Of a stretch of 64,000 nt of DNA, positions 1 to 30,672 are shown piece after piece. The notes below the pieces were generated by a model that was not told where the DNA came from, ran no database searches, and worked only from the letters and a program-made list of their open reading frames with translations. Position numbers and translations under genes: made by a program. The DNA is from Gemmatimonadota bacterium (GTDB lineage: Bacteria; Latescibacterota; UBA2968; UBA8231): assembly GCA_038153405.1 (NCBI GenBank), contig JAYOYH010000004.1, positions 32,001-96,000 on the forward strand, in the 5' to 3' direction. Within the stretch, counting starts at the first letter, position 1, and each line of letters starts with the position of its first letter.

Positions 1-1
1 C

Positions 2-1339
2 GCCGACTAAGCAGATAACGGCGGCGCGATAAGACATGATCTCATCGCCATCTTCCACTTGTGGCGCTCGTCCCAGCGCTTTGGCAAAGACGTCTCTCAG
101 GTGGTCGCGTCCCACCCACAAACCCAGCAGCACCATCGCCAACAGCGCGCCCCCACCCTGATAGGCTAGCAGCGGTTGGTCCGCTACGCCGTAGACGAAT
201 TTGCTCGTCGACTTTAAACCGGCCACGGCGATAAACTCGGCTTCTATCTTGGACAGCAGGTGAAAGATCCAAATGCCAGCCGCCACCTGCGTGCTGATGA
301 GATAGGAAAAGCCCAGCAGAGCAAAGCTGATGCGGTACTGCAGTTGCTGCGAACCAAAGAATTCGCCTGTCCAAATGAGGTTGACTACCGGCACGGACGG
401 ATCGTAGCGATGCAAGGCCGTCAGCGAACCAAAGAAGAGGGGAATGGCAACGCCACACCAGAGGGCCGGTCGGCGCAAAAAGCCATTCAACAGGTTCTTT
501 TCGTCTTCCCCGGCGACCATGGCCAAGCCAACTTGAGTCAGCGGATAGGCCAGGCGCTCGCGCTCCATCCACTGGCGGCGCAGGATGACCGCCGTGGCCA
601 CCATCGCCGCGTAGAGGGCGAGCAGAAAGATCGCCCACCACAGCAACGGCCCAATCCACGCGACGTAGGGCACTTCGGCAAGGCCGCCTTCGTAAAACCC
701 CACGCTCTGCTGTCCATCGTCAAAGAGCACGCGCTCCGAGCGCAGCGGCACCAGCTTTTCAATCCACTTGTTCTCGGGCGTGGCGTAGTAGAAAAACGCC
801 GTAATGGTCGGCAATAGCTGCTGCGTCATGCCCATTGTGCACAGTGACGAAACGACCATCAACATAACGTAGACGAGCACGAGTTCAGCACGGTTGAGCG
901 CCAGGCTGCCACCGCGCTGCACGATGGGCACGCTCATCCACAGCGAGGCAACGACAAAAGACGCCAGCCAAAAACCGGGTTTGTAGATATCAATGGCACC
1001 GACGTGTAGATAGTGGGCGATGTAGGCCAACGCCGTTGTTGCAGCTACCCCCGTGCACAGCGCGGGGCTGCGCGCCACCCATTTGAAAAGCGCATTGATC
1101 AGTCCAATCAGAACGAGGAATAGAAATATGGCACCCGGCGTATTGAAGTCGAAGGACATATTGCTGGCGCGCATGGCCATATTGGCGTAGGGCGAGCCGA
1201 TAGCCAGCAAAAAACTGAGAAAGGAGCCCACCCAAAATCCGCGCGCCGACAGGCCGGCGCGCGCGCTGGTGCCGCCCAACGAAGCCTCCTGACGGCTGGC
1301 TAAATACTCGTCGTAAATGAGTGGGATATGTCTGTTCAA
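2..1339 (-). CDS. DUF6785-type polytopic membrane protein (putative transporter); 3' end runs off the window
   Basis: Absent from the ORF track because no stop lies in the window. Manual translation from TTG 1339 (AAGGAG RBS upstream) gives MNRHIPLIY...FDFNTPGAIFLF...YYATPENKW...LRRQWMERERLAYPLTQVGLAMV, a clear paralog of 47726..49882. Confidence 0.85.
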   Translation of the reverse strand, partial: MNRHIPLIYDEYLASRQEASLGGTSARAGLSARGFWVGSFLSFLLAIGSPYANMAMRASNMSFDFNTPGAIFLFLVLIGLINALFKWVARSPALCTGVAATTALAYIAHYLHVGAIDIYKPGFWLASFVVASLWMSVPIVQRGGSLALNRAELVLVYVMLMVVSSLCTMGMTQQLLPTITAFFYYATPENKWIEKLVPLRSERVLFDDGQQSVGFYEGGLAEVPYVAWIGPLLWWAIFLLALYAAMVATAVILRRQWMERERLAYPLTQVGLAMVAGEDEKNLLNGFLRRPALWCGVAIPLFFGSLTALHRYDPSVPVVNLIWTGEFFGSQQLQYRISFALLGFSYLISTQVAAGIWIFHLLSKIEAEFIAVAGLKSTSKFVYGVADQPLLAYQGGGALLAMVLLGLWVGRDHLRDVFAKALGRAPQVEDGDEIMSYRAAVICLVG

Positions 1340-5150: not shown

Positions 5151-7805
5151 CTAATTCCTCGGGCGGATATTCGGTTTGACCTCGCACGCCGGACAGGCGC
5201 GGCGCAGCTGTTCGCGTCGCACCCGCCACAGGTCGCGTGCCAGCACCAATTCGGCCGAGGCCTGGCCAACCCGACCCCGTTGCTGTATGTTGCGCCGGTC
5301 GAGCGCCGCCTCGAGCGCGTCGATGGAGACGGGACATTCTCCGCTGCGAAAGGCCAATCCGGGCACTGTACGCACGCGGCCATTAGCGTCGACAATGCGA
5401 TCCTCGTTGGCAAAGGAGTCGATGCAGCCACAGGGCACAGACAGTTCGGCTACGTGGTAGGCCGTCGACGTCCAATGCGTCGTACCCAGCGCCAGAATAT
5501 AGCCACCGCCGTGCACCAATTTGCCAATTGGGCTGCGCGCATCCCAAATGCCCACTTCCAGATGCTCGCCGCAGTAGTCGGCCGCGCGCGCGCCAACGGC
5601 CGCAACCGCATGCGTTGGATGCACGCTGCGCTCGGCCTGCGGCAAGCGCCATAGCGCGTCGGGTATGGCGCCGTTGGTCGTTGGCGTCGTCATCGGGTTG
5701 TACACAGCTGCCGCGCGATGATTAAACGAAGGCATGAGCAGCGTTCCGCTGCGCCCGACCGCGTCCAGTAGCGCGCTGACGACCGCATCCGCGCCACCCT
5801 GCACGCGTCCTATGGCGCCCAGCGAAGAATGCACCATCAGATCCATACCCTTTTTCACGCCCAATGCCCGCAGGTCTTTTACCAGACGCGCCTTGCTCAA
5901 CAAATCGCGCGGATCGAGCAATTCGACATAGCCCAGTTCGGCATGTGCGGCAAAATAGTCGATGGCTTTTGCCACATCGACCGCGCGACCGCGCGTGCGA
6001 CCGCCGCCCACGCTGGCCGTCTCTTCGCACTCGACGCGCTCGACAATTTCGGCAATACTGCGCTTGCCATCGGCCCAGAATAGCGCCCACGAAGGCAAGC
6101 CCGCTCGGCCAATGCGCTGGCCAATCTCGCGCGGCGCATTTTCAGGGGTGGGCGAAAGGAGCGCCGTGCGCCGCGGTATATGGCCCGCCCCTGTCGGCAG
6201 CGCTCCCTTTCTTTTGACGGCGCGCACTGTGCCGCACAGTTCCGCCACCTCGCGCTCGGCATCGTCCAACTCAGACAGTATGGCGCGGCGATCGCCGCCC
6301 CATAGAAACCGCCGCAGGCGCGCATTGCCCTCGCGATGCACGTCGCGCAGGTAGTCAGCCTCTTTGCGCGAGGGCGCTCGTCCAACTAGCTGCACGGCGT
6401 GTGCCCGCTCCATGCGGCCTACTTCGAGCACTTCGCGGCTGCCCATATTGGCTAGGTAATAGAGGTACGCCGCCATAGACGCCGCACACGTTTCCAAGCC
6501 CTTAGCACTGAGCAACGCGAGCTGGTCGGCCGACGAATGATAGGCATCAAAACCGCTGCCAGAGCGCTTGTGATGCGTCGTAATCCAGGGACAGGGAAAG
6601 CCGTACTGGGGATCGCCGATCAGCGTATCGGAGGTCGAGACAAACGGCTCCAAGTGCAGTGCATAACCGGGCTTATGACGGCGCAGGGCAGCGCGCAGCA
6701 CGGAGGCGCCGATGCGGTCGACGAACGAGGCCGACATGGGGATGGTCGAGTGCCACTCCAAGCGCCCACCGCAGTGCGTCGGCTTGAGACCCAACGTATC
6801 AATACAAACGCCAGCCAGCGGCGTTTGCAGGCGGCGCGTTCGCTCCAGATAGCCAAAAAAGCCGTAGCACTCGTAGGCATTTAGCAGGCGTATGCTGCGC
6901 CGCGGTCTGGCCAACTGACCGCTGGCAATCAGCTGTTCTAGCACGTGGGCAATCTCCAACGTGAGCGCAACGCCCGAAGCGTTATCGGTCGCACCGGGTT
7001 CGGCGCTATGGGCAATTGCCCACACTTCATCCTGCGGATCATCGGCGCCGCGCACGATGCCACTTACGACGTCGTGGTGACCGACATACTTGCGGATATC
7101 CGCTTTGAGCAGGAGCTGCAGCGAACCAAATTTCTGCAGCTTCTTTCGCAGCGCTTCGCCCTGGTGCTGCGAAAGGACAAAACCGACGAGGCGGGCGGTA
7201 GCATGCCCCATTGGAATCGCGCCCCAACCAAATTTGGTCCACGCCAACGCGCGCGGATAGTTCGGCACTGGTCGATCGCCAATGACGCCGATGGCACCCC
7301 GATCGGCCAGCAGTTCCATAAGCGCGCGCGGATCGCCGTTGGTCAGGACGATTTTGTTGCGCAGCCGACCCGCCGGCATGCGCTCTATAGCCTCGCGCGT
7401 GTCCAGTACAACGAGCTCTGCGCGCAGGCCACCGGCTGGCGTAGCCGCACTCCACTGCACGACGTGCCAAGGATTCTCAGCGTAATCTAGAACGCGCTCT
7501 TTGAAGGGATGCACTACGTCGACCGTCGCGCTGCGCACATCAGCGGCTTCTTGAATAATCCACCGTCCGCTGCCGATCTGTCCTCCCGTCTGCAGGGCTT
7601 CCACTTCGGCGATGGCGCCCGCCTCCCTGTAGTAGCGCACGAGCTTTTCCGTAGTGCGGTGAAAGTGATCAAAAGAGTTCCAGCGATCGCTTTCCACAAT
7701 GTCGGCAACGCGCGCCAGCATGCGCTTGCCGCTGCTTTGGCGCAGCATTAGGGGCAGGCTCGTTCGGCATAGCGCGCTCAGCGATAGAGGCGTGGGGATA
7801 GCCAT
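5151..7805 (-). CDS. DUF4910/peptidase-M28-like protein fused to a C-terminal AAC(3)-family N-acetyltransferase
   Basis: N-part: IAHSAEPGATDNASG, AYECYG, YHSSAD, winged-helix-like ALFWADGKRSIAEI. C-part from about 5900: LGVKKGMDLMVHSSLGAIG, GTLLMPSF, RSVHPTHAVAAVG, TAYHVAE. AGGAG RBS before ATG 7805. Confidence 0.88.
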   Translation of the reverse strand: MAIPTPLSLSALCRTSLPLMLRQSSGKRMLARVADIVESDRWNSFDHFHRTTEKLVRYYREAGAIAEVEALQTGGQIGSGRWIIQEAADVRSATVDVVHPFKERVLDYAENPWHVVQWSAATPAGGLRAELVVLDTREAIERMPAGRLRNKIVLTNGDPRALMELLADRGAIGVIGDRPVPNYPRALAWTKFGWGAIPMGHATARLVGFVLSQHQGEALRKKLQKFGSLQLLLKADIRKYVGHHDVVSGIVRGADDPQDEVWAIAHSAEPGATDNASGVALTLEIAHVLEQLIASGQLARPRRSIRLLNAYECYGFFGYLERTRRLQTPLAGVCIDTLGLKPTHCGGRLEWHSTIPMSASFVDRIGASVLRAALRRHKPGYALHLEPFVSTSDTLIGDPQYGFPCPWITTHHKRSGSGFDAYHSSADQLALLSAKGLETCAASMAAYLYYLANMGSREVLEVGRMERAHAVQLVGRAPSRKEADYLRDVHREGNARLRRFLWGGDRRAILSELDDAEREVAELCGTVRAVKRKGALPTGAGHIPRRTALLSPTPENAPREIGQRIGRAGLPSWALFWADGKRSIAEIVERVECEETASVGGGRTRGRAVDVAKAIDYFAAHAELGYVELLDPRDLLSKARLVKDLRALGVKKGMDLMVHSSLGAIGRVQGGADAVVSALLDAVGRSGTLLMPSFNHRAAAVYNPMTTPTTNGAIPDALWRLPQAERSVHPTHAVAAVGARAADYCGEHLEVGIWDARSPIGKLVHGGGYILALGTTHWTSTAYHVAELSVPCGCIDSFANEDRIVDANGRVRTVPGLAFRSGECPVSIDALEAALDRRNIQQRGRVGQASAELVLARDLWRVRREQLRRACPACEVKPNIRPRN

Positions 7806-7908
7806 ATACACTCTCCTATTTAGCCAATCTATATGTGATTAATACGGTCCGCGTACTGTTCTCCATCTAAGCTAGGCCATCGGTTCAGCGGCAACATACA
7901 CACCTCTT

Positions 7909-9810
7909 TCAAGCCGTCAGGGTCTCTTCTTCCAGCGCGTTGGCCAAGGCCTCCCACTCCTGCCACAGGGCCTGCGAAGCGGCCTCCAATTCGGCGTACT
8001 GGTCTCCAAGCGTCCGCACCATATCCAAGTCTTGTTCCTCACCGGCCTTGCCGATGCGCACGCTCAGGGTCTCCATGCGCTCCTCAAGACTGGCGATCTC
8101 CTCCTCTACCGCGCGCTGGCGTTCTTCCATCTTCTCGCGCTGTTTGCGTTCGCGCCGCGCCTCGCGCTGCGCTTCGCGATGGTCCTGGCGCGTAGTCCCT
8201 GCAGCGATGGCAGCGGCTTCCTGGCGCGCGCTGCGCCAGGCCATATACTCGTGCCAACCCCCTTCCAATACGTGCAGCATGCCCTCTTCAATAGCCCATA
8301 CGTGGGTGGCCAGCGCCTGCACCAGATAGCGGTCGTGGCTGACTAGGAGAAAGGTGCCATCAAAGTGGTGCAGCACATCTTCCAAGACCTCCTGCGAAGC
8401 GATATCGAGGTGATTGGTCGGCTCGTCGAGGATCAGTACGTTGACTTCCAGCATGGCCAAGCGCGCCAGCGCAACGCGACTGCGCTGTCCACCGCTCAGT
8501 TCGCCGATGCACTTGAAAACGTCGTCTCCTTTAAATAGGAAACTGCCCAGCAGCGAGCGCACCTGTTCGGAGGGCACCTGCGGCTTAACTTGGCGCACGG
8601 CACCGAGCACATCCTGCAGGGGATCTAAGTAGTCATGCGCCTGCGACAGGTAGCCGAGTTCGACATTGGCGCCGTTTTTGATTTCGCCTTCCAGCACGGC
8701 GAGTTCGCCGAGAATACTGCGCACCAGCGTCGTCTTACCAGCACCGTTGGGACCGACGATGGCCACGCGCATGCCGCGCCGCAGTTCCATATCGGAAACC
8801 CGCACCAACGGCTGGTCATATCCCACGCCGACGCCGGAAAAGCTCAGCACAATATCACCGCTGCGCTTGGGCGGATTTAGCCGCACGCGGATTTGCTGGG
8901 CGCGCTGCGGCTTTTCAATGGCCTCGTCGCGCAAAAAGCGCTGCAGTCGCGTCCGACGCCCCTGCGCTTCCTTGGTGCGCTGACCGGCGATATGGCGGCG
9001 AATAAAATCTTCCGTCTTCTCGATGTGTTCGCGCTGCTCACTCCACTGCTTGAGTCGAAAGACATAGCGCTCTTCGCGCTGACGAACGTAGTGGCTGTAG
9101 TGGCCGCGGTATGTCTCGAGGACACCAAAGGCCATCTCCCACGTGCGCTCGGTAGTCGCATCGAGGAAATAGCGATCGTGTGAGACGACGACCAGAGCTC
9201 CCTTGAACATCTGTAAAAAACTTTCCAACCATTCGACGGCATATACGTCGAGGTGGTTGGTCGGCTCGTCGAGTAGTAACAGGTCCGGCGCATCGAGCAG
9301 CAGGCGCGCCAGCAGCGAGCGCGTCTTCTGCCCACCGCTTAGCTGATCCAAAGGCTGGGCATACTCGTCCTCTGCAAAACCCAATCCGCTAAGCACCGTG
9401 CGAATACGCGTTTCATAGGTGTAGCCCTCGCGTCGCTCGAACTCCACCTGCAGCGCGCTGTACTGCTCGAGCACTGCCCCATCGCCTAGGTCGGCAGAGA
9501 GGGCATTGAGTTCGGCCTCCATCTGGCGCACATCGGCAAAGACATCGAGCATGGAGTCCCACAGCGTCTTGTCGGTTGACGCCGGCGGATCCTGAGGCAA
9601 ATAGCCCACGCGCAAGCCGCTCTTGTAGTGTATCGCACCCACTGTTGGCTCGTCGACGCCGGCCAGCAGGCGCAGCAGCGTCGTTTTGCCCTCGCCGTTG
9701 GGACCGACTAGGCCAATTCGGTCGCCGTGCTCTATGCTGAACCGCACATTCTTAAACACGTCGAAGTCGCCGTAGGATCGCCCGACGTTTGTACCCGTTA
9801 CAATGGACAT
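7909..9810 (-). CDS. ABC-F family ATPase
   Basis: Two NBDs (GPNGEGKTT/LSGGQ/DEPTNHLD and GPNGAGKTT/LSGGQ/DEPTNHLD), no TM segments, C-terminal coiled coil. Start taken at MSIVTG. Confidence 0.93.
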   Translation of the reverse strand: MSIVTGTNVGRSYGDFDVFKNVRFSIEHGDRIGLVGPNGEGKTTLLRLLAGVDEPTVGAIHYKSGLRVGYLPQDPPASTDKTLWDSMLDVFADVRQMEAELNALSADLGDGAVLEQYSALQVEFERREGYTYETRIRTVLSGLGFAEDEYAQPLDQLSGGQKTRSLLARLLLDAPDLLLLDEPTNHLDVYAVEWLESFLQMFKGALVVVSHDRYFLDATTERTWEMAFGVLETYRGHYSHYVRQREERYVFRLKQWSEQREHIEKTEDFIRRHIAGQRTKEAQGRRTRLQRFLRDEAIEKPQRAQQIRVRLNPPKRSGDIVLSFSGVGVGYDQPLVRVSDMELRRGMRVAIVGPNGAGKTTLVRSILGELAVLEGEIKNGANVELGYLSQAHDYLDPLQDVLGAVRQVKPQVPSEQVRSLLGSFLFKGDDVFKCIGELSGGQRSRVALARLAMLEVNVLILDEPTNHLDIASQEVLEDVLHHFDGTFLLVSHDRYLVQALATHVWAIEEGMLHVLEGGWHEYMAWRSARQEAAAIAAGTTRQDHREAQREARRERKQREKMEERQRAVEEEIASLEERMETLSVRIGKAGEEQDLDMVRTLGDQYAELEAASQALWQEWEALANALEEETLTA

Positions 9811-9980
9811 CTCGCTCGCATCCGTTTTGCCCACTAAAAAAGGGGGCGAAAGGCAAAATGACAACTGCAGCGCGCGGACCACGCCGAACCGACGCGCTAT
9901 CGACGCCGAGCGCAGCTTGCCGAAGGCCCTTGCAGCGACGTTACTTTTACAGCGCACTGCCGTACCGCTATCCCTCATAG

Positions 9981-11336
9981 ATGCAAAGCATAGGCATGCC
10001 CTACGTCGATCTCGACATCGCCGCACTTGTGCGGCCACATAGTGCATCCATCCACACGCGCCACTTCTGCGTTGCTCAGGGTGCCCTGGCACGCGCCAGT
10101 GACGTTCTTCGCGCCGCGCTACCGGCCGGGCGCTGGCACCTAGTAGCCGACGCAACGACCTGGGCGCTGGCCGGACCGGCGCTCTCAGCCCAGTTGCGCA
10201 ACGCCGGCATCTCTCATGTCCTGCACGTAATGGACGACGCGCGGCCCGCGCCGACGATGGAAGCCGTCGAAGCCCTGCACGCCGCTCTCGATGGATCGAC
10301 CGCCGCCCTCGCGCTGGGCGCCGGCACGATCAACGACCTAGTCAAAATGGCTGCCCACCGCGCCGGCATCCCCTATGCCGCCGTGGCGACGGCTCCGTCG
10401 ATGAACGGCTATACCTCGGCCATAGCCGCACTGCTCGAAGACGGGGTCAAAACCACTCGGCCCTGCACGCCGCCCATCGCCGTAGTAGCCGATATCGACC
10501 TGCTGGCCGCCGCGCCCTACCGCATGATCGCCGCAGGCTTTGGCGACCTGATTTCCAAACCCGTTAGCCAGGCCGACTGGCTGCTAGCCCACCACCTGAC
10601 TGACGCGCCCTACTCCGCGCAAGCCGCTCAGCTCATCGATGCCAGCGCAGCACTACTCGACGGCATGGCAACCCAACTGCCCCAACGCGCGCCCGAAGCC
10701 GTCGGCCGGCTCGTCGGCAGCCTGCTGCTCTCCGGTCTGTCCATGGCCGTGGCCGGCTCGTCGGCCCCATCCAGCGGCGGCGAGCACCTCATCAGCCACT
10801 ACTTCGACATGACCCACTACGCCTTTGGCCAGCCCAACGACCTGCACGGCTGTCAGGTCGGCGTGGCCACTGCGACAACGGCGGCGCTCTACGAAAAGCT
10901 GCTCGCGCTCGACCCGGCGCACATCGACCGGACGGCGCGCACCGCGGCACTCCTGCCTTGGGCGATCTATCGGCGCACAGTAGAAACGCACTTCGCACAG
11001 TTGGCACCCGCTGTCTTGCCCCATGCCGAGCAGGGCTACCCCAGTCGCTCAGAGCTAAATGAGCGGCTACAGCGCCTGCAGGCGCACTGGTCGGAGATCG
11101 TCGCTGCGCTCGCTGCGACCCTGCGCCCTGCCGCCGACATCATTGCCGACCTCACTGCCGCTGGCGCCCCTACCACGTTTGCCGAACTGGGCGTACTCCC
11201 CCAGCGCGTGCGCTGTGCCCTGCTGCACGGCAAGGACATTCGCGCCCGCTACACTATCCTGCATTTGCTGAGCGAGTTGGGCGTGCTGGAAGACTGGTCG
11301 GATAGCGCGCTGGAGGAACGCGCGCTGTTATACTGA
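9981..11336 (+). CDS. sn-glycerol-1-phosphate dehydrogenase-like protein (AraM/EgsA family)
   Basis: LGAGTINDLVK, TAPSMNGYTS, AGFGDLISK, SGGEHLISH, LHGCQVG. Confidence 0.85.
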   Translation: MQSIGMPYVDLDIAALVRPHSASIHTRHFCVAQGALARASDVLRAALPAGRWHLVADATTWALAGPALSAQLRNAGISHVLHVMDDARPAPTMEAVEALHAALDGSTAALALGAGTINDLVKMAAHRAGIPYAAVATAPSMNGYTSAIAALLEDGVKTTRPCTPPIAVVADIDLLAAAPYRMIAAGFGDLISKPVSQADWLLAHHLTDAPYSAQAAQLIDASAALLDGMATQLPQRAPEAVGRLVGSLLLSGLSMAVAGSSAPSSGGEHLISHYFDMTHYAFGQPNDLHGCQVGVATATTAALYEKLLALDPAHIDRTARTAALLPWAIYRRTVETHFAQLAPAVLPHAEQGYPSRSELNERLQRLQAHWSEIVAALAATLRPAADIIADLTAAGAPTTFAELGVLPQRVRCALLHGKDIRARYTILHLLSELGVLEDWSDSALEERALLY

Positions 11337-28731: not shown

Positions 28732-30672
28732 TCAGCCCATAAACGAGCCCAGTGCATTGCCGTTCATACCCGTGAAATAGTCGATGATTAACCAAAAACC
28801 CGCCGGCACAATTTCGCCGAGAATCATGCCGAGAAAAAACGGCACCGTGTTGCGATAGAGCTGCGGTCCGCCGTATTTGAGCACGTATCCCTTGAGCAAA
28901 TAGGCGATCAATACGCTGAACCACATGCCGCCAAAGGCCGCGCTGATGGGAAAGCCCAGCGGGTGGAAGGGCCACCAAAAAAAGCGATAGTGCATCAGCT
29001 CCAGCGCCGCCATAATGGCCGCGCCCACACCCACCTGAATCCAGCCGTCCCAGTGCGGTCCCTGCGGATAGGAGACGACGATATCCATAAAGCGATAGGG
29101 ATATTGCGCCGCATTGTCGGCATAGAATGGATTGAGATTAATCGCCCCGTGCTGGTAGGCCACTTCGAGCCGTATCCACAGCGCCGAGCAAATGGATAGG
29201 GCGATGGTCGCCATAATCGCCCAGAATAGCCGCCGCTTAGCGTGCAGAAACTCGTCGGCCAATTTCAGGCCGTTGCTGCAGGAGGTCATCAGCAGCACCA
29301 ACACATCCGTGCCCCAAACATAGGTGGTCGTCAGCGCCGCAGCACCCTTGGCCCCCAGCGCCGTAGTGCCTAGCGCGGCGCTGGTAAAGTCGGGGCCGGT
29401 AATCGGCGGGAACATCACCGCTACGCCGCCTTCGACGACCACGCGCGTAATCGTGAGAAAGAGCGCAAAGCAGATAAAGAGTAAAAAGGGCACGACCCAC
29501 GGCGGCAACCCCGCTATCCACAGCCAGGTGCCCATGGCGACCGTGCCCAGCAGCAGCGAAAACACGGCAGCGCGGTAGGACATCATCTCGTCGCTGTCGT
29601 CGACGCGCTCGTCGCCGATAAATGCCTTGCGCAGCACGTCGGCCAAATGGGCGCGCGCGTTCCACAGGCCCGCCAGCACCAATACCAACATGCCTCCCAT
29701 CGCCTGGTAGATGATAATCGGCTGGGCATAGTGGCCAAAAGCGCCGACCGGACCGGCGTCGATTTTAATCCCCACCATGCGAAAATAGCCCTGCTCGCAC
29801 ACATTGAGCAGATAGAAAAACACCAGTCCGGCAGCGATGTTGCGGTTGATCAAATAGGAGAAGCCCAGCATGGTAAAGCTCAGGCCAAAGCCGATGGTCA
29901 CCGAGTTGCGAAAGAGCGCTACGGAGCCAAAGCTGGTCGAAATGCTGGGAAAGAATTCGTAATAGCTATGCAGCGCGTTGGCGTTGACGATCATGCAGGG
30001 CAGCAAAAAACCAAGCCACATCGCCCACGAGCGGAAAAAGGGCTTGCGGCCTGCCGCATCTTCGCGCAGCATGTGCTGCGGCAGCTGCATCATGGGGTAT
30101 ACCAAGCGCTCGCGCTCGACCCACTGGCGCCGCAGGATAACGGAGATGGCAATCATCACCAAATACATCGCCAAACCGAAAAGCAGCCAGGAGGCCAGCG
30201 GCGCAAACCATATGTCCCATGGCACGCCCATGCCACCCTCTGCTCCCTCGTAGTAGTGACGCACGGCGGCTTCGTCCTGCACCGTTGCCCAATCCGGCAA
30301 GTACGGCCACACCTGCTCTTTCCAATTGTTCTCTGGCGTCGCGTAGTAAAAAGCCCCGGTGGCCACAGCCGGTACGTAGGCGGCAAATCCGCGCGCTGGC
30401 AGCGTATTGGCGATCAGCAGCATGATGTAGATTACCGCCAGTTCACCCGGATCGAGCGCCCACGGCCGATGCACGGCACCGACCAGCCCATTGGCGATAG
30501 CCACGACGACAAAGAACAGAAAAATGGAACCCGGATTGGTATTCCACACCCCCATCTGCGAGCCCTTGATGATCATATCACCCCAGGGAATCGCGATGCT
30601 CATAAAAGCCACCAGCGCCAAACCAATGGAGATCGCGCGCAGCGAACAGCCTCTATATACTTTATTGCCCAT
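28732..30672 (-). CDS. DUF6785-type polytopic membrane protein (putative transporter)
   Basis: YYATPENNW, LRRQWVERERLVYP, DDSDEMMSYR, TRVVVEGG, WWPFHPLGF, LKYGG. Confidence 0.85.
   Translation of the reverse strand: MGNKVYRGCSLRAISIGLALVAFMSIAIPWGDMIIKGSQMGVWNTNPGSIFLFFVVVAIANGLVGAVHRPWALDPGELAVIYIMLLIANTLPARGFAAYVPAVATGAFYYATPENNWKEQVWPYLPDWATVQDEAAVRHYYEGAEGGMGVPWDIWFAPLASWLLFGLAMYLVMIAISVILRRQWVERERLVYPMMQLPQHMLREDAAGRKPFFRSWAMWLGFLLPCMIVNANALHSYYEFFPSISTSFGSVALFRNSVTIGFGLSFTMLGFSYLINRNIAAGLVFFYLLNVCEQGYFRMVGIKIDAGPVGAFGHYAQPIIIYQAMGGMLVLVLAGLWNARAHLADVLRKAFIGDERVDDSDEMMSYRAAVFSLLLGTVAMGTWLWIAGLPPWVVPFLLFICFALFLTITRVVVEGGVAVMFPPITGPDFTSAALGTTALGAKGAAALTTTYVWGTDVLVLLMTSCSNGLKLADEFLHAKRRLFWAIMATIALSICSALWIRLEVAYQHGAINLNPFYADNAAQYPYRFMDIVVSYPQGPHWDGWIQVGVGAAIMAALELMHYRFFWWPFHPLGFPISAAFGGMWFSVLIAYLLKGYVLKYGGPQLYRNTVPFFLGMILGEIVPAGFWLIIDYFTGMNGNALGSFMG

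Follow-up and report, generated by a model that had tools for sequence, protein, structure and literature searches.

A single-chain fusion of an M28-like hydrolase module and an AAC(3)-fold acetyltransferase in uncultured bacteria: a candidate two-step enzyme of amine metabolism

The gene described here lies in a 64,000-nucleotide stretch of DNA (hereafter, the window) from a Latescibacterota genome deposited as a Gemmatimonadota bacterium (assembly GCA_038153405.1, contig JAYOYH010000004.1, positions 32,001 to 96,000). In one uninterrupted chain, it encodes an M28-like hydrolase with several attached domains (together, the N-module) followed by an acetyltransferase domain of the AAC(3), or aminoglycoside 3-N-acetyltransferase, fold. 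The fused reading frame is confirmed as one genuine gene that is widely conserved in uncultured bacteria; both halves carry conserved catalytic motifs, the fusion recurs and its two parts co-occur across genomes, and no conserved operon surrounds it. Because the gene moves without partners and keeps two active sites, it is best read as a self-sufficient two-step enzyme, and a probability of about 0.4 is assigned to the proposal that the protein deacylates an anionic amino metabolite and then acetylates it.

The fused gene and its two catalytic halves

The gene and its parts are as follows, with residues numbered according to the 886-residue translation of the open reading frame (ORF); the protein from ATG 7805 has 884 aa.

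5151..7805, minus strand: whole fused gene, from ATG 7805 to the stop at 5151-5153, 884 aa; fused in 78 of 80 related loci
7811..7817, minus strand: Shine-Dalgarno-like AGGAGAG, 5 nt before ATG 7805, from the sequence
7548..7805, minus strand: N-terminal part of the M28-like domain, residues 3-88, with a conserved DRWNSF motif
7089..7547, minus strand: PA / DUF2172-like inserted lid domain, about residues 89-241 (boundaries approximate), from the AlphaFold2 model, Foldseek and the 3k9t match
6447..7088, minus strand: M28-like metallo-amidohydrolase core, with predicted ligands H268, E271, D276, D338 and H425 and predicted general base E314
6222..6446, minus strand: helical domain, about residues 456-530, the least conserved part (AlphaFold2 model, alignment of relatives)
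5916..6194, minus strand: circularly permuted winged-helix domain, about residues 540-632, matching 3k9t 353-434 (Z 7.2, root-mean-square deviation (rmsd) 2.1)
5154..5915, minus strand: complete Antibiotic_NAT / AAC(3)-fold N-acetyltransferase domain with a C-terminal Cys cluster (PF02522, 149 bits)
5445..5465, minus strand: catalytic TxΦHΦAE motif, T783-A-Y-H786-V-A-E789 (motif as given in PMC8956665)

The uninterrupted ORF spans 5151-7811 on the minus strand, and ATG 7805 is the likely start, because the AGGAGAG sequence lies shortly before it and the proteins of the closest relatives start there as well. Searching proteins with the N-module yielded 395 relatives out of 7,993 scored candidates, and 119 of the 120 closest that were listed have the AAC(3) domain too. 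At the level of genomes, 120 loci were found and 80 were kept; both parts lie on one chain in 78 of these, the exceptions being one locus (L065) that stops after the winged helix and another (L053) that is broken and runs to the end of its contig. The loci are labelled mainly as Latescibacterota or Gemmatimonadota metagenome-assembled genomes (MAGs), with some Planctomycetota and Poribacteria and one Fimbriimonadaceae. Within the window's phylum, 96 of 151 genomes match the N-module, and within its family 55 of 63 do. The single-chain fusion claimed by the original prediction is thereby borne out, and the architecture, whose rarity that prediction had wished to gauge, turns out to be common among relatives; no paper on it was found in the open-access literature. 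A check of the junction had also been proposed; it is spanned without gaps by independently assembled contigs from run X7 and from runs X5/X6, which appear to be one data set, and the anchor-to-anchor distance over it is 18 residues in 120 of 121 aligned rows. An assembly artefact is ruled out by these contigs, by the constant junction length and by the 78 fused loci. In four unsaturated pairs of five, the ratio of non-synonymous to synonymous substitution (dN/dS) is 0.03-0.06 for the M28 core and 0.08-0.10 for the AAC(3) domain, which places both halves under purifying selection. A scan for promoters and terminators gave no promoters and two terminator-like sites, at chance level, and one RNA run held only a 198-nt piece of the gene, which is not counted as expression evidence.

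Pfam places Antibiotic_NAT (PF02522) at residues 659-869 with 149 bits against a cut-off of 25, covering positions 1-231 of the 232 in the model, so that the AAC(3) domain is complete, as had been predicted. Peptidase_M28 (PF04389) scores 31.8 bits, above its cut-off of 21.3, and DUF4910 (PF16254), with a cut-off of 26.6, scores 24.0 bits in the Pfam scan and 26.8 in the genome search. The AlphaFold2 model, built on a 40-row alignment and covering 856 residues, has a predicted local distance difference test score (pLDDT) of 87.9 and a predicted template modelling score (pTM) of 0.89, and its top Foldseek matches are PA-containing M28 peptidases (2ek8, E 4e-19; 3iib) and AAC(3)-fold proteins. 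The domain order is an M28-like core with a PA insert, a helical domain, a permuted winged helix and, finally, AAC(3); the PA-type insert (about 89-241) and the helical domain (about 456-530) had escaped the original prediction. Residues 1-435 of the model superpose on CA_C2195 (3k9t) with Z 21.9 and rmsd 2.6 over 339 residues at 20% identity, and several M28 and transferrin-receptor entries equal 3k9t in Z for this region, at lower identity. The winged-helix-like segment noticed earlier also finds its counterpart there: folded alone, residues 520-634 have as their best match among 48,161 chains the C-terminal permuted winged helix-turn-helix (wHTH) of 3k9t (68 residues), with the Z of 7.2 being a middling score. 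The constant junction length and the pTM of 0.89 would fit two domains held as a docked unit, docking being judged here from the single-chain pTM alone.

All of the M28-like metal motifs and Cys motifs named in the original prediction are present. In the hydrolase, these are AHSAEPGATDNASG (H268, E271, D276), AYECYG (E314), D338 and YHSSAD (H425). M28 peptidases have five canonical ligands of two zinc ions, including an EE motif, and E314-C315 stands where this motif would be; E314 would act as the general base, E271 may substitute for the second Glu, and the N-module would presumably bind metal. All 120 close relatives keep H268, E271, D276, E314, C315, D338, D395, H425 and D429, and of 72 unfused distant members, all have H268, E314, D338 and H425, 71 have D276 and 67 have E271. 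Conservation within the window's clade is highest in the hydrolase core (0.82 vs 0.76).

The nearest structural precedent for the N-module is CA_C2195 (PDB 3k9t; DUF4910 + DUF2172 + HTH_47; PMC4000134), which has the same M28-like core, PA-like insert and permuted C-terminal winged helix and which, together with its family member Cj1295 (PMC3068675), shares with the fused protein a partnership with AAC(3)-fold genes. Whereas CA_C2195 has 434 aa, the N-module has about 630, including the extra helical domain, and keeps the acids E271, E314 and D338 besides the H/D/H set; the gene is also fused rather than adjacent to AAC(3), lies outside polysaccharide loci and has no FkbH gene nearby. The earlier label of DUF4910/M28 holds for the M28 fold and the CA_C2195-type architecture; it fails for the canonical DUF4910 protein of about 430 aa, as the N-module belongs to an uncharacterised sister subfamily of about 600-680 aa. 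By its motifs, this subfamily looks more complete as a hydrolase than CA_C2195, because the latter is reported to retain just three ligands of one zinc, with the catalytic Asp and Glu replaced (PMC4000134). The PA-containing M28 aminopeptidases and glutamate carboxypeptidase II (2ek8, 3iib, 6hc6, 4ngr) likewise share the M28 core and PA insert, with His, Asp, Glu, Asp and His in matching sequence order at 13-17% identity; compared with them, the fused protein has Cys for the second Glu of EE and a conserved Glu three residues after the first His, and it adds the wHTH and AAC(3) domains at its C-terminus.

In the acetyltransferase half, the TxΦHΦAE motif is kept in 117 of the 120 relatives. The Cys motifs are CGC (C794/C796), GECP (C826) and CPAC (C873/C876), of which C796, C826, C873 and C876 are kept in 116-117 of 120 and form a predicted Zn site; C826, C873 and C876 align with C189, C247 and C250 of AAC(3)-IVa, and C796 may be the fourth ligand; for comparison, group 1 Antibiotic_NAT proteins (AAC(3)-IV-like) have a C3H1 zinc site at the C-terminus. 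The domain matches AAC(3)-IVa (6mn3) and AAC(3)-IIIa with Z 28.7, and AAC(3)-IVa, at 32% identity, is the closest characterised relative, sharing the fold, the catalytic motif, the C-terminal CxxC and the Cys matching C189. The AAC(3)-domain tree does not place the fused protein with it, and in the fused protein the domain is carried on the 630-aa N-terminal module. Moreover, the residues reported to bind aminoglycosides in AAC(3)-IVa, namely W63, D67, E185, D187 and E249 (PMC8956665), are absent; H698, R699 and R822 are conserved instead, E185/D187 align to a gapped loop (FRSGECP in the fused protein), and the net charge of the fused AAC(3) domain is +7 against -8, a crude whole-domain measure. 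Because the aminoglycoside-binding acids are not kept, the non-resistance role suggested in the original prediction is likely. The top AAC(3)-fold Foldseek match is FrbF (32% identity), which, like YokD and BA2930, has the same fold and catalytic motif; these three proteins stand alone without an attached hydrolase.

Recurrence of the fusion and its genomic surroundings

The N-module defines a large family, with 1,985 clusters at 50% identity in a profile search, 472 of them at E<=1e-30. The best 150 members are mainly stand-alone proteins of about 600-680 aa, and 19 of 39 scanned members, chosen for length or closeness, carry PF02522. In a FastTree phylogeny of 125 N-modules (28 fragments dropped), fused members appear at about six separate places, while in a tree of 74 AAC(3) domains their AAC(3) halves fall into at least three groups. 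Monophyly of the fused AAC(3) halves is rejected by an approximately unbiased (AU) test (p=0.0004; 27 vs 46 rows, with one long branch left out and four short "single" rows inside the fused clade counted with that clade). On these alignments and trees, the pairing is recurrent. The trees do not separate repeated fusion from repeated fission in general; P0128, however, whose AAC(3) nests among stand-alone proteins, points to at least one separate fusion event, because it joins a near-kin N-module to a different AAC(3) lineage. In the ESM Atlas, three fusion clusters of the window-gene type have 51, 80 and 51 members, and a 721-aa cluster of canonical DUF4910+DUF2172+AAC(3) (97 members, score 0.88) provides a lead.

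The two parts also tend to occur together. Among 301 planctomycete genomes (the phylum of one of the genomes with a relative), the N-module was found in 39, an AAC(3) gene in 56 and the fusion in 14, and a separate AAC(3) gene was present in 15 of 25 genomes with an unfused N-module, compared with 27 of 262 without the module. This co-occurrence is suggestive only, because related genomes do not count as independent cases and the assemblies are incomplete. In a sister AAC(3) clade, 80 metagenome loci include three fusions, one split adjacent pair and seven with an acetamidase/formamidase gene nearby. The split pair (L135:3095-6879), in which an acetamidase, a stand-alone N-module of 589 aa and a stand-alone AAC(3) stand in a row between GH123 and DUF5107 genes, is a split form of the fusion. 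Together with the recurrent fusion and the genome co-occurrence, it strengthens the Rosetta-stone argument of the original prediction, which took the fusion as a pointer to a two-step amine-modifying reaction.

Other AAC(3) genes keep comparable company. At four loci (L162:5992-9077, L169, L187 and L191), three of which also have an upstream lactonase gene, a repeated run of AAC(3), acetamidase/formamidase (PF03069) and a D-serine-dehydratase-like pyridoxal phosphate (PLP) enzyme was seen, and this run is a candidate amino-sugar-acid catabolic unit. In another example from a same-family genome (L255:1402-3414), AAC(3) is joined to a neutral-ceramidase-like domain in a 670-aa protein, a second candidate amidase-acetyltransferase fusion, with a Pfam E of 1.5e-4 that is under the cut-off. 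Stand-alone N-modules were also seen in tandem arrays of two or three, with signal-peptide-like N-termini, in another family of the phylum (L118:3700-10512, L120, L127), where they adjoin URO-D-family and rhamnose-symporter genes; the neighbourhoods of distant stand-alone members are drawn from genome searches only.

In the window, the fused gene is flanked by an ABC-F ATPase upstream on the same strand (7909-9984, minus) and by a convergent CheW/receiver gene. The adjacency of the ATPase is lineage synteny rather than a general partnership, because the same neighbour family occurs in 12 of 80 related loci. Beyond it lies an iron-containing alcohol dehydrogenase family gene (9981-11336, plus; PF13685) that resembles glycerol-1-phosphate dehydrogenase. 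DUF6785/DUF6784 membrane proteins occur at 28732-30672 (minus; confirmed by Pfam) and at 1-1339 (minus; by resemblance), and many relatives have a member of this family downstream of the fusion. Across clades, the neighbours differ and include ABC-F ATPases, DUF6785-type membrane proteins, dehydrogenases, class III aminotransferases and microcompartment genes; in one clade of 13 loci, the fusion has a malate/lactate/ureidoglycolate-dehydrogenase-like gene on one side and a class III aminotransferase gene on the other, and planctomycete neighbours include a heparinase-like gene and a GH4 gene. No conserved operon was seen by eye in 20 planctomycete regions. Taken as a whole, the neighbours are unconserved and often catabolic.

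The original prediction had started from polysaccharide loci, where separate DUF4910 and AAC(3)-like genes are often found together. This premise holds for canonical DUF4910 genes, for which AAC(3) genes are frequent neighbours and DUF4910-AAC(3)-acyl carrier protein (ACP)-FkbH neighbourhoods are documented (PMC4000134 supplements), but not for the window protein. None of the 81 neighbour families recurring in at least two loci (of 224 clusters in the 80 loci; first 330 residues scanned, ORFs of 150 aa or more, a range that leaves ACP outside) matched glycosyltransferase, nucleotide-sugar or FkbH models (NCBIfam, E<=1e-25), and an FkbH query found nothing in the 1.24 Mb around the 80 loci. With no FkbH gene nearby, coenzyme A (CoA) is a more probable donor than a carrier protein. 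The host genome does possess an AAC(3)-ACP-FkbH cassette elsewhere (C1:153703-156639; L083), in which an ACP-like ORF and then an FkbH-like gene come after a separate AAC(3) gene; no DUF4910 match lies beside it, and its AAC(3) is just 31% identical to the fused one over 150 residues. A third AAC(3) gene, which stands alone (C40:32143-35395; L081, L086), has a distant PA/M28-type gene of 476 aa about 1 kb away on the other strand; the surroundings include sulfatase, enolase-family and short-chain dehydrogenase/reductase (SDR) genes.

Proposed acyl exchange and its alternatives

In the proposed reaction, the M28-like module would first cleave an amide, N-acyl or N-aminoacyl, of a small amino metabolite that would stem from glycan breakdown and is probably anionic. 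The AAC(3)-fold domain would then acetylate the amine so exposed, with acetyl-CoA as the presumed donor, to yield an ordinary N-acetyl form usable by core catabolism or salvage. The net effect would be to swap an unusual acyl group on a nutrient-derived amine for acetyl, not to inactivate an antibiotic. Channelling between the domains would be useful if the free amine were unstable, as is free neuraminic acid. We infer the amidase activity, the order of steps, their coupling and channelling, and the substrate class, so that the two-step amine reaction of the original prediction is retained in conditional form. In support, nearly all of the 120 close relatives keep both sites intact, and the chemistry has been proposed before: amide transacylation/deacylation for the CA_C2195 family (PMC4000134), and acetamido cleavage for its member Cj1295, which C. 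jejuni needs to make dimethylglyceroyl-pseudaminic acid, replacing N-acetyl, and for which 5-acetamido cleavage before re-acylation is hypothesised (PMC3068675). The reaction envisaged here would be the catabolic mirror of that proposed for Cj1295. A similar logic, a catabolic hydrolase joined to an amino-sugar acetyltransferase, is found in RmNag of Rhizomucor (PMC4680927), where a GH3 hydrolase is fused to a GNAT glucosamine N-acetyltransferase; both halves are of different folds and the hydrolase is a glycosidase rather than an amidase, making this an analogy only.

Several observations weigh against acyl exchange. The hydrolase ligands are missing from 5 of 19 distant, Pfam-confirmed fused representatives (P0132, P0141, P0151, P0191, P0221), and therefore coupling is not obligatory everywhere; one of these (P0221, labelled a Spirochaetia MAG) also appears to be without the PA domain. 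The N-module stands alone in 22 of 30 planctomycete loci, and some stand-alone copies have signal-peptide-like N-termini and look like secreted hydrolases, with no AAC(3) match in two of four tested genomes of that group. Likewise, four same-family genomes without an N-module match carry 3-5 AAC(3) genes, the co-occurrence may reflect a shared lifestyle among kin, and no conserved neighbour indicates the substrate.

Among the alternatives, an unlikely one that still merits attention is that the halves protect and deprotect an amine at opposite ends of a pathway, with AAC(3) acetylating at the start, the M28-like module removing the acetyl at the end and the middle steps encoded elsewhere. Acetylation or acylation at the start and deacylation at the end are known from the ArgA/ArgE and DapD/DapE pairs, and M20/M28-clan deacylases are established in such pathways. 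The two intact active sites and the 13-locus clade, with its dehydrogenase-like and aminotransferase genes, agree with such an arrangement, but the middle enzymes are not conserved neighbours across clades, and the fixed junction suggests a hand-over more than two distant steps. It is improbable that the protein cuts and caps peptides, with the PA lid and the winged helix holding a peptide that the M28-like module trims and AAC(3) acetylating the new N-terminus or released amine, for example to detoxify a peptide-linked antimetabolite. The best Foldseek matches are indeed PA-M28 aminopeptidases, peptide recognition has been proposed for the permuted wHTH (PMC4000134), the stand-alone members with signal peptides resemble ordinary secreted hydrolases, and the winged helix weakly resembles recognition elements (RREs) of ribosomally synthesised and post-translationally modified peptides (PbtF, Z 5.2; PqqD, Z 4.6). 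These RRE matches, however, rank below 3k9t at a level usual for common folds; the loci show no recurrent precursor or biosynthetic cluster, and the M28 EE motif is E-C.

Quite improbable, too, is a role in trans in tailoring surface glycans by acyl exchange of the Cj1295/CA_C2195 type on a nucleotide-activated sugar. Full structural homology to CA_C2195, the published DUF4910-AAC(3)-ACP-FkbH neighbourhoods (PMC4000134 supplements) and a positively charged acceptor pocket suited to a nucleotide sugar would accommodate it, yet the scanned loci have no glycan-biosynthesis neighbours, and the cassette of the host genome lies elsewhere with its divergent AAC(3). That the N-module is mainly a binding or oligomerisation scaffold, or that fusion merely co-expresses two unrelated activities, would suit the five distant proteins with a dead hydrolase site, three of which (P0132, P0141, P0221) keep the AAC(3) His/Glu pair; this reading is nonetheless very improbable: in the window's clade, no part is better conserved than the hydrolase core, which evolves at a dN/dS of 0.03-0.06, and repeated pairing with the same fold argues against chance. 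Least probable is the aminoglycoside-resistance enzyme of the database names, for which the relationship to AAC(3)-IVa in catalytic motif and CxxC speaks. The NCBIfam resistance models are missed by a wide margin (AAC_3, 107.5 bits vs 270; AAC_3_IV, 129.6 vs 420), the substrate-binding acids are replaced in a positively charged domain, the gene behaves as a stable chromosomal one within its family, and FrbF, YokD and BA2930 have the fold without aminoglycoside activity (PMC8956665).

No paper on the N-module subfamily or its AAC(3) fusion was found in the open-access literature. The DUF4910-AAC(3) partnership is already published, and the fused form with the longer subfamily is what is added here; PMC4000134 speaks of "in some cases gene fusions" but leaves the partners unnamed, and an unlabelled fusion may be present in its supplement 2 beyond the 32 "aminoglycoside" passages. 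The fused proteins are labelled "aminoglycoside 3-N-acetyltransferase" in public databases and may inflate resistome counts in marine and sediment metagenomes. As one soluble chain that unites an AAC(3)-fold domain with a module related to the DUF4910 clan, the protein offers the easiest system for the deacylation-reacylation idea proposed in 2010 and 2014. It is tempting, though tentative, to suggest that these proteins represent a stand-alone N-acyl editing family in glycan-degrading uncultured bacteria, which would act on amino sugars or nonulosonic acids freed from the surface glycans of other organisms, removing exotic N-acyl groups and passing the reactive amine directly to AAC(3), thereby normalising them to N-acetyl sugars. 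If true, amide editing, with several amidase folds as partners, would be a principal native function of the AAC(3) fold, from which resistance would have branched off.

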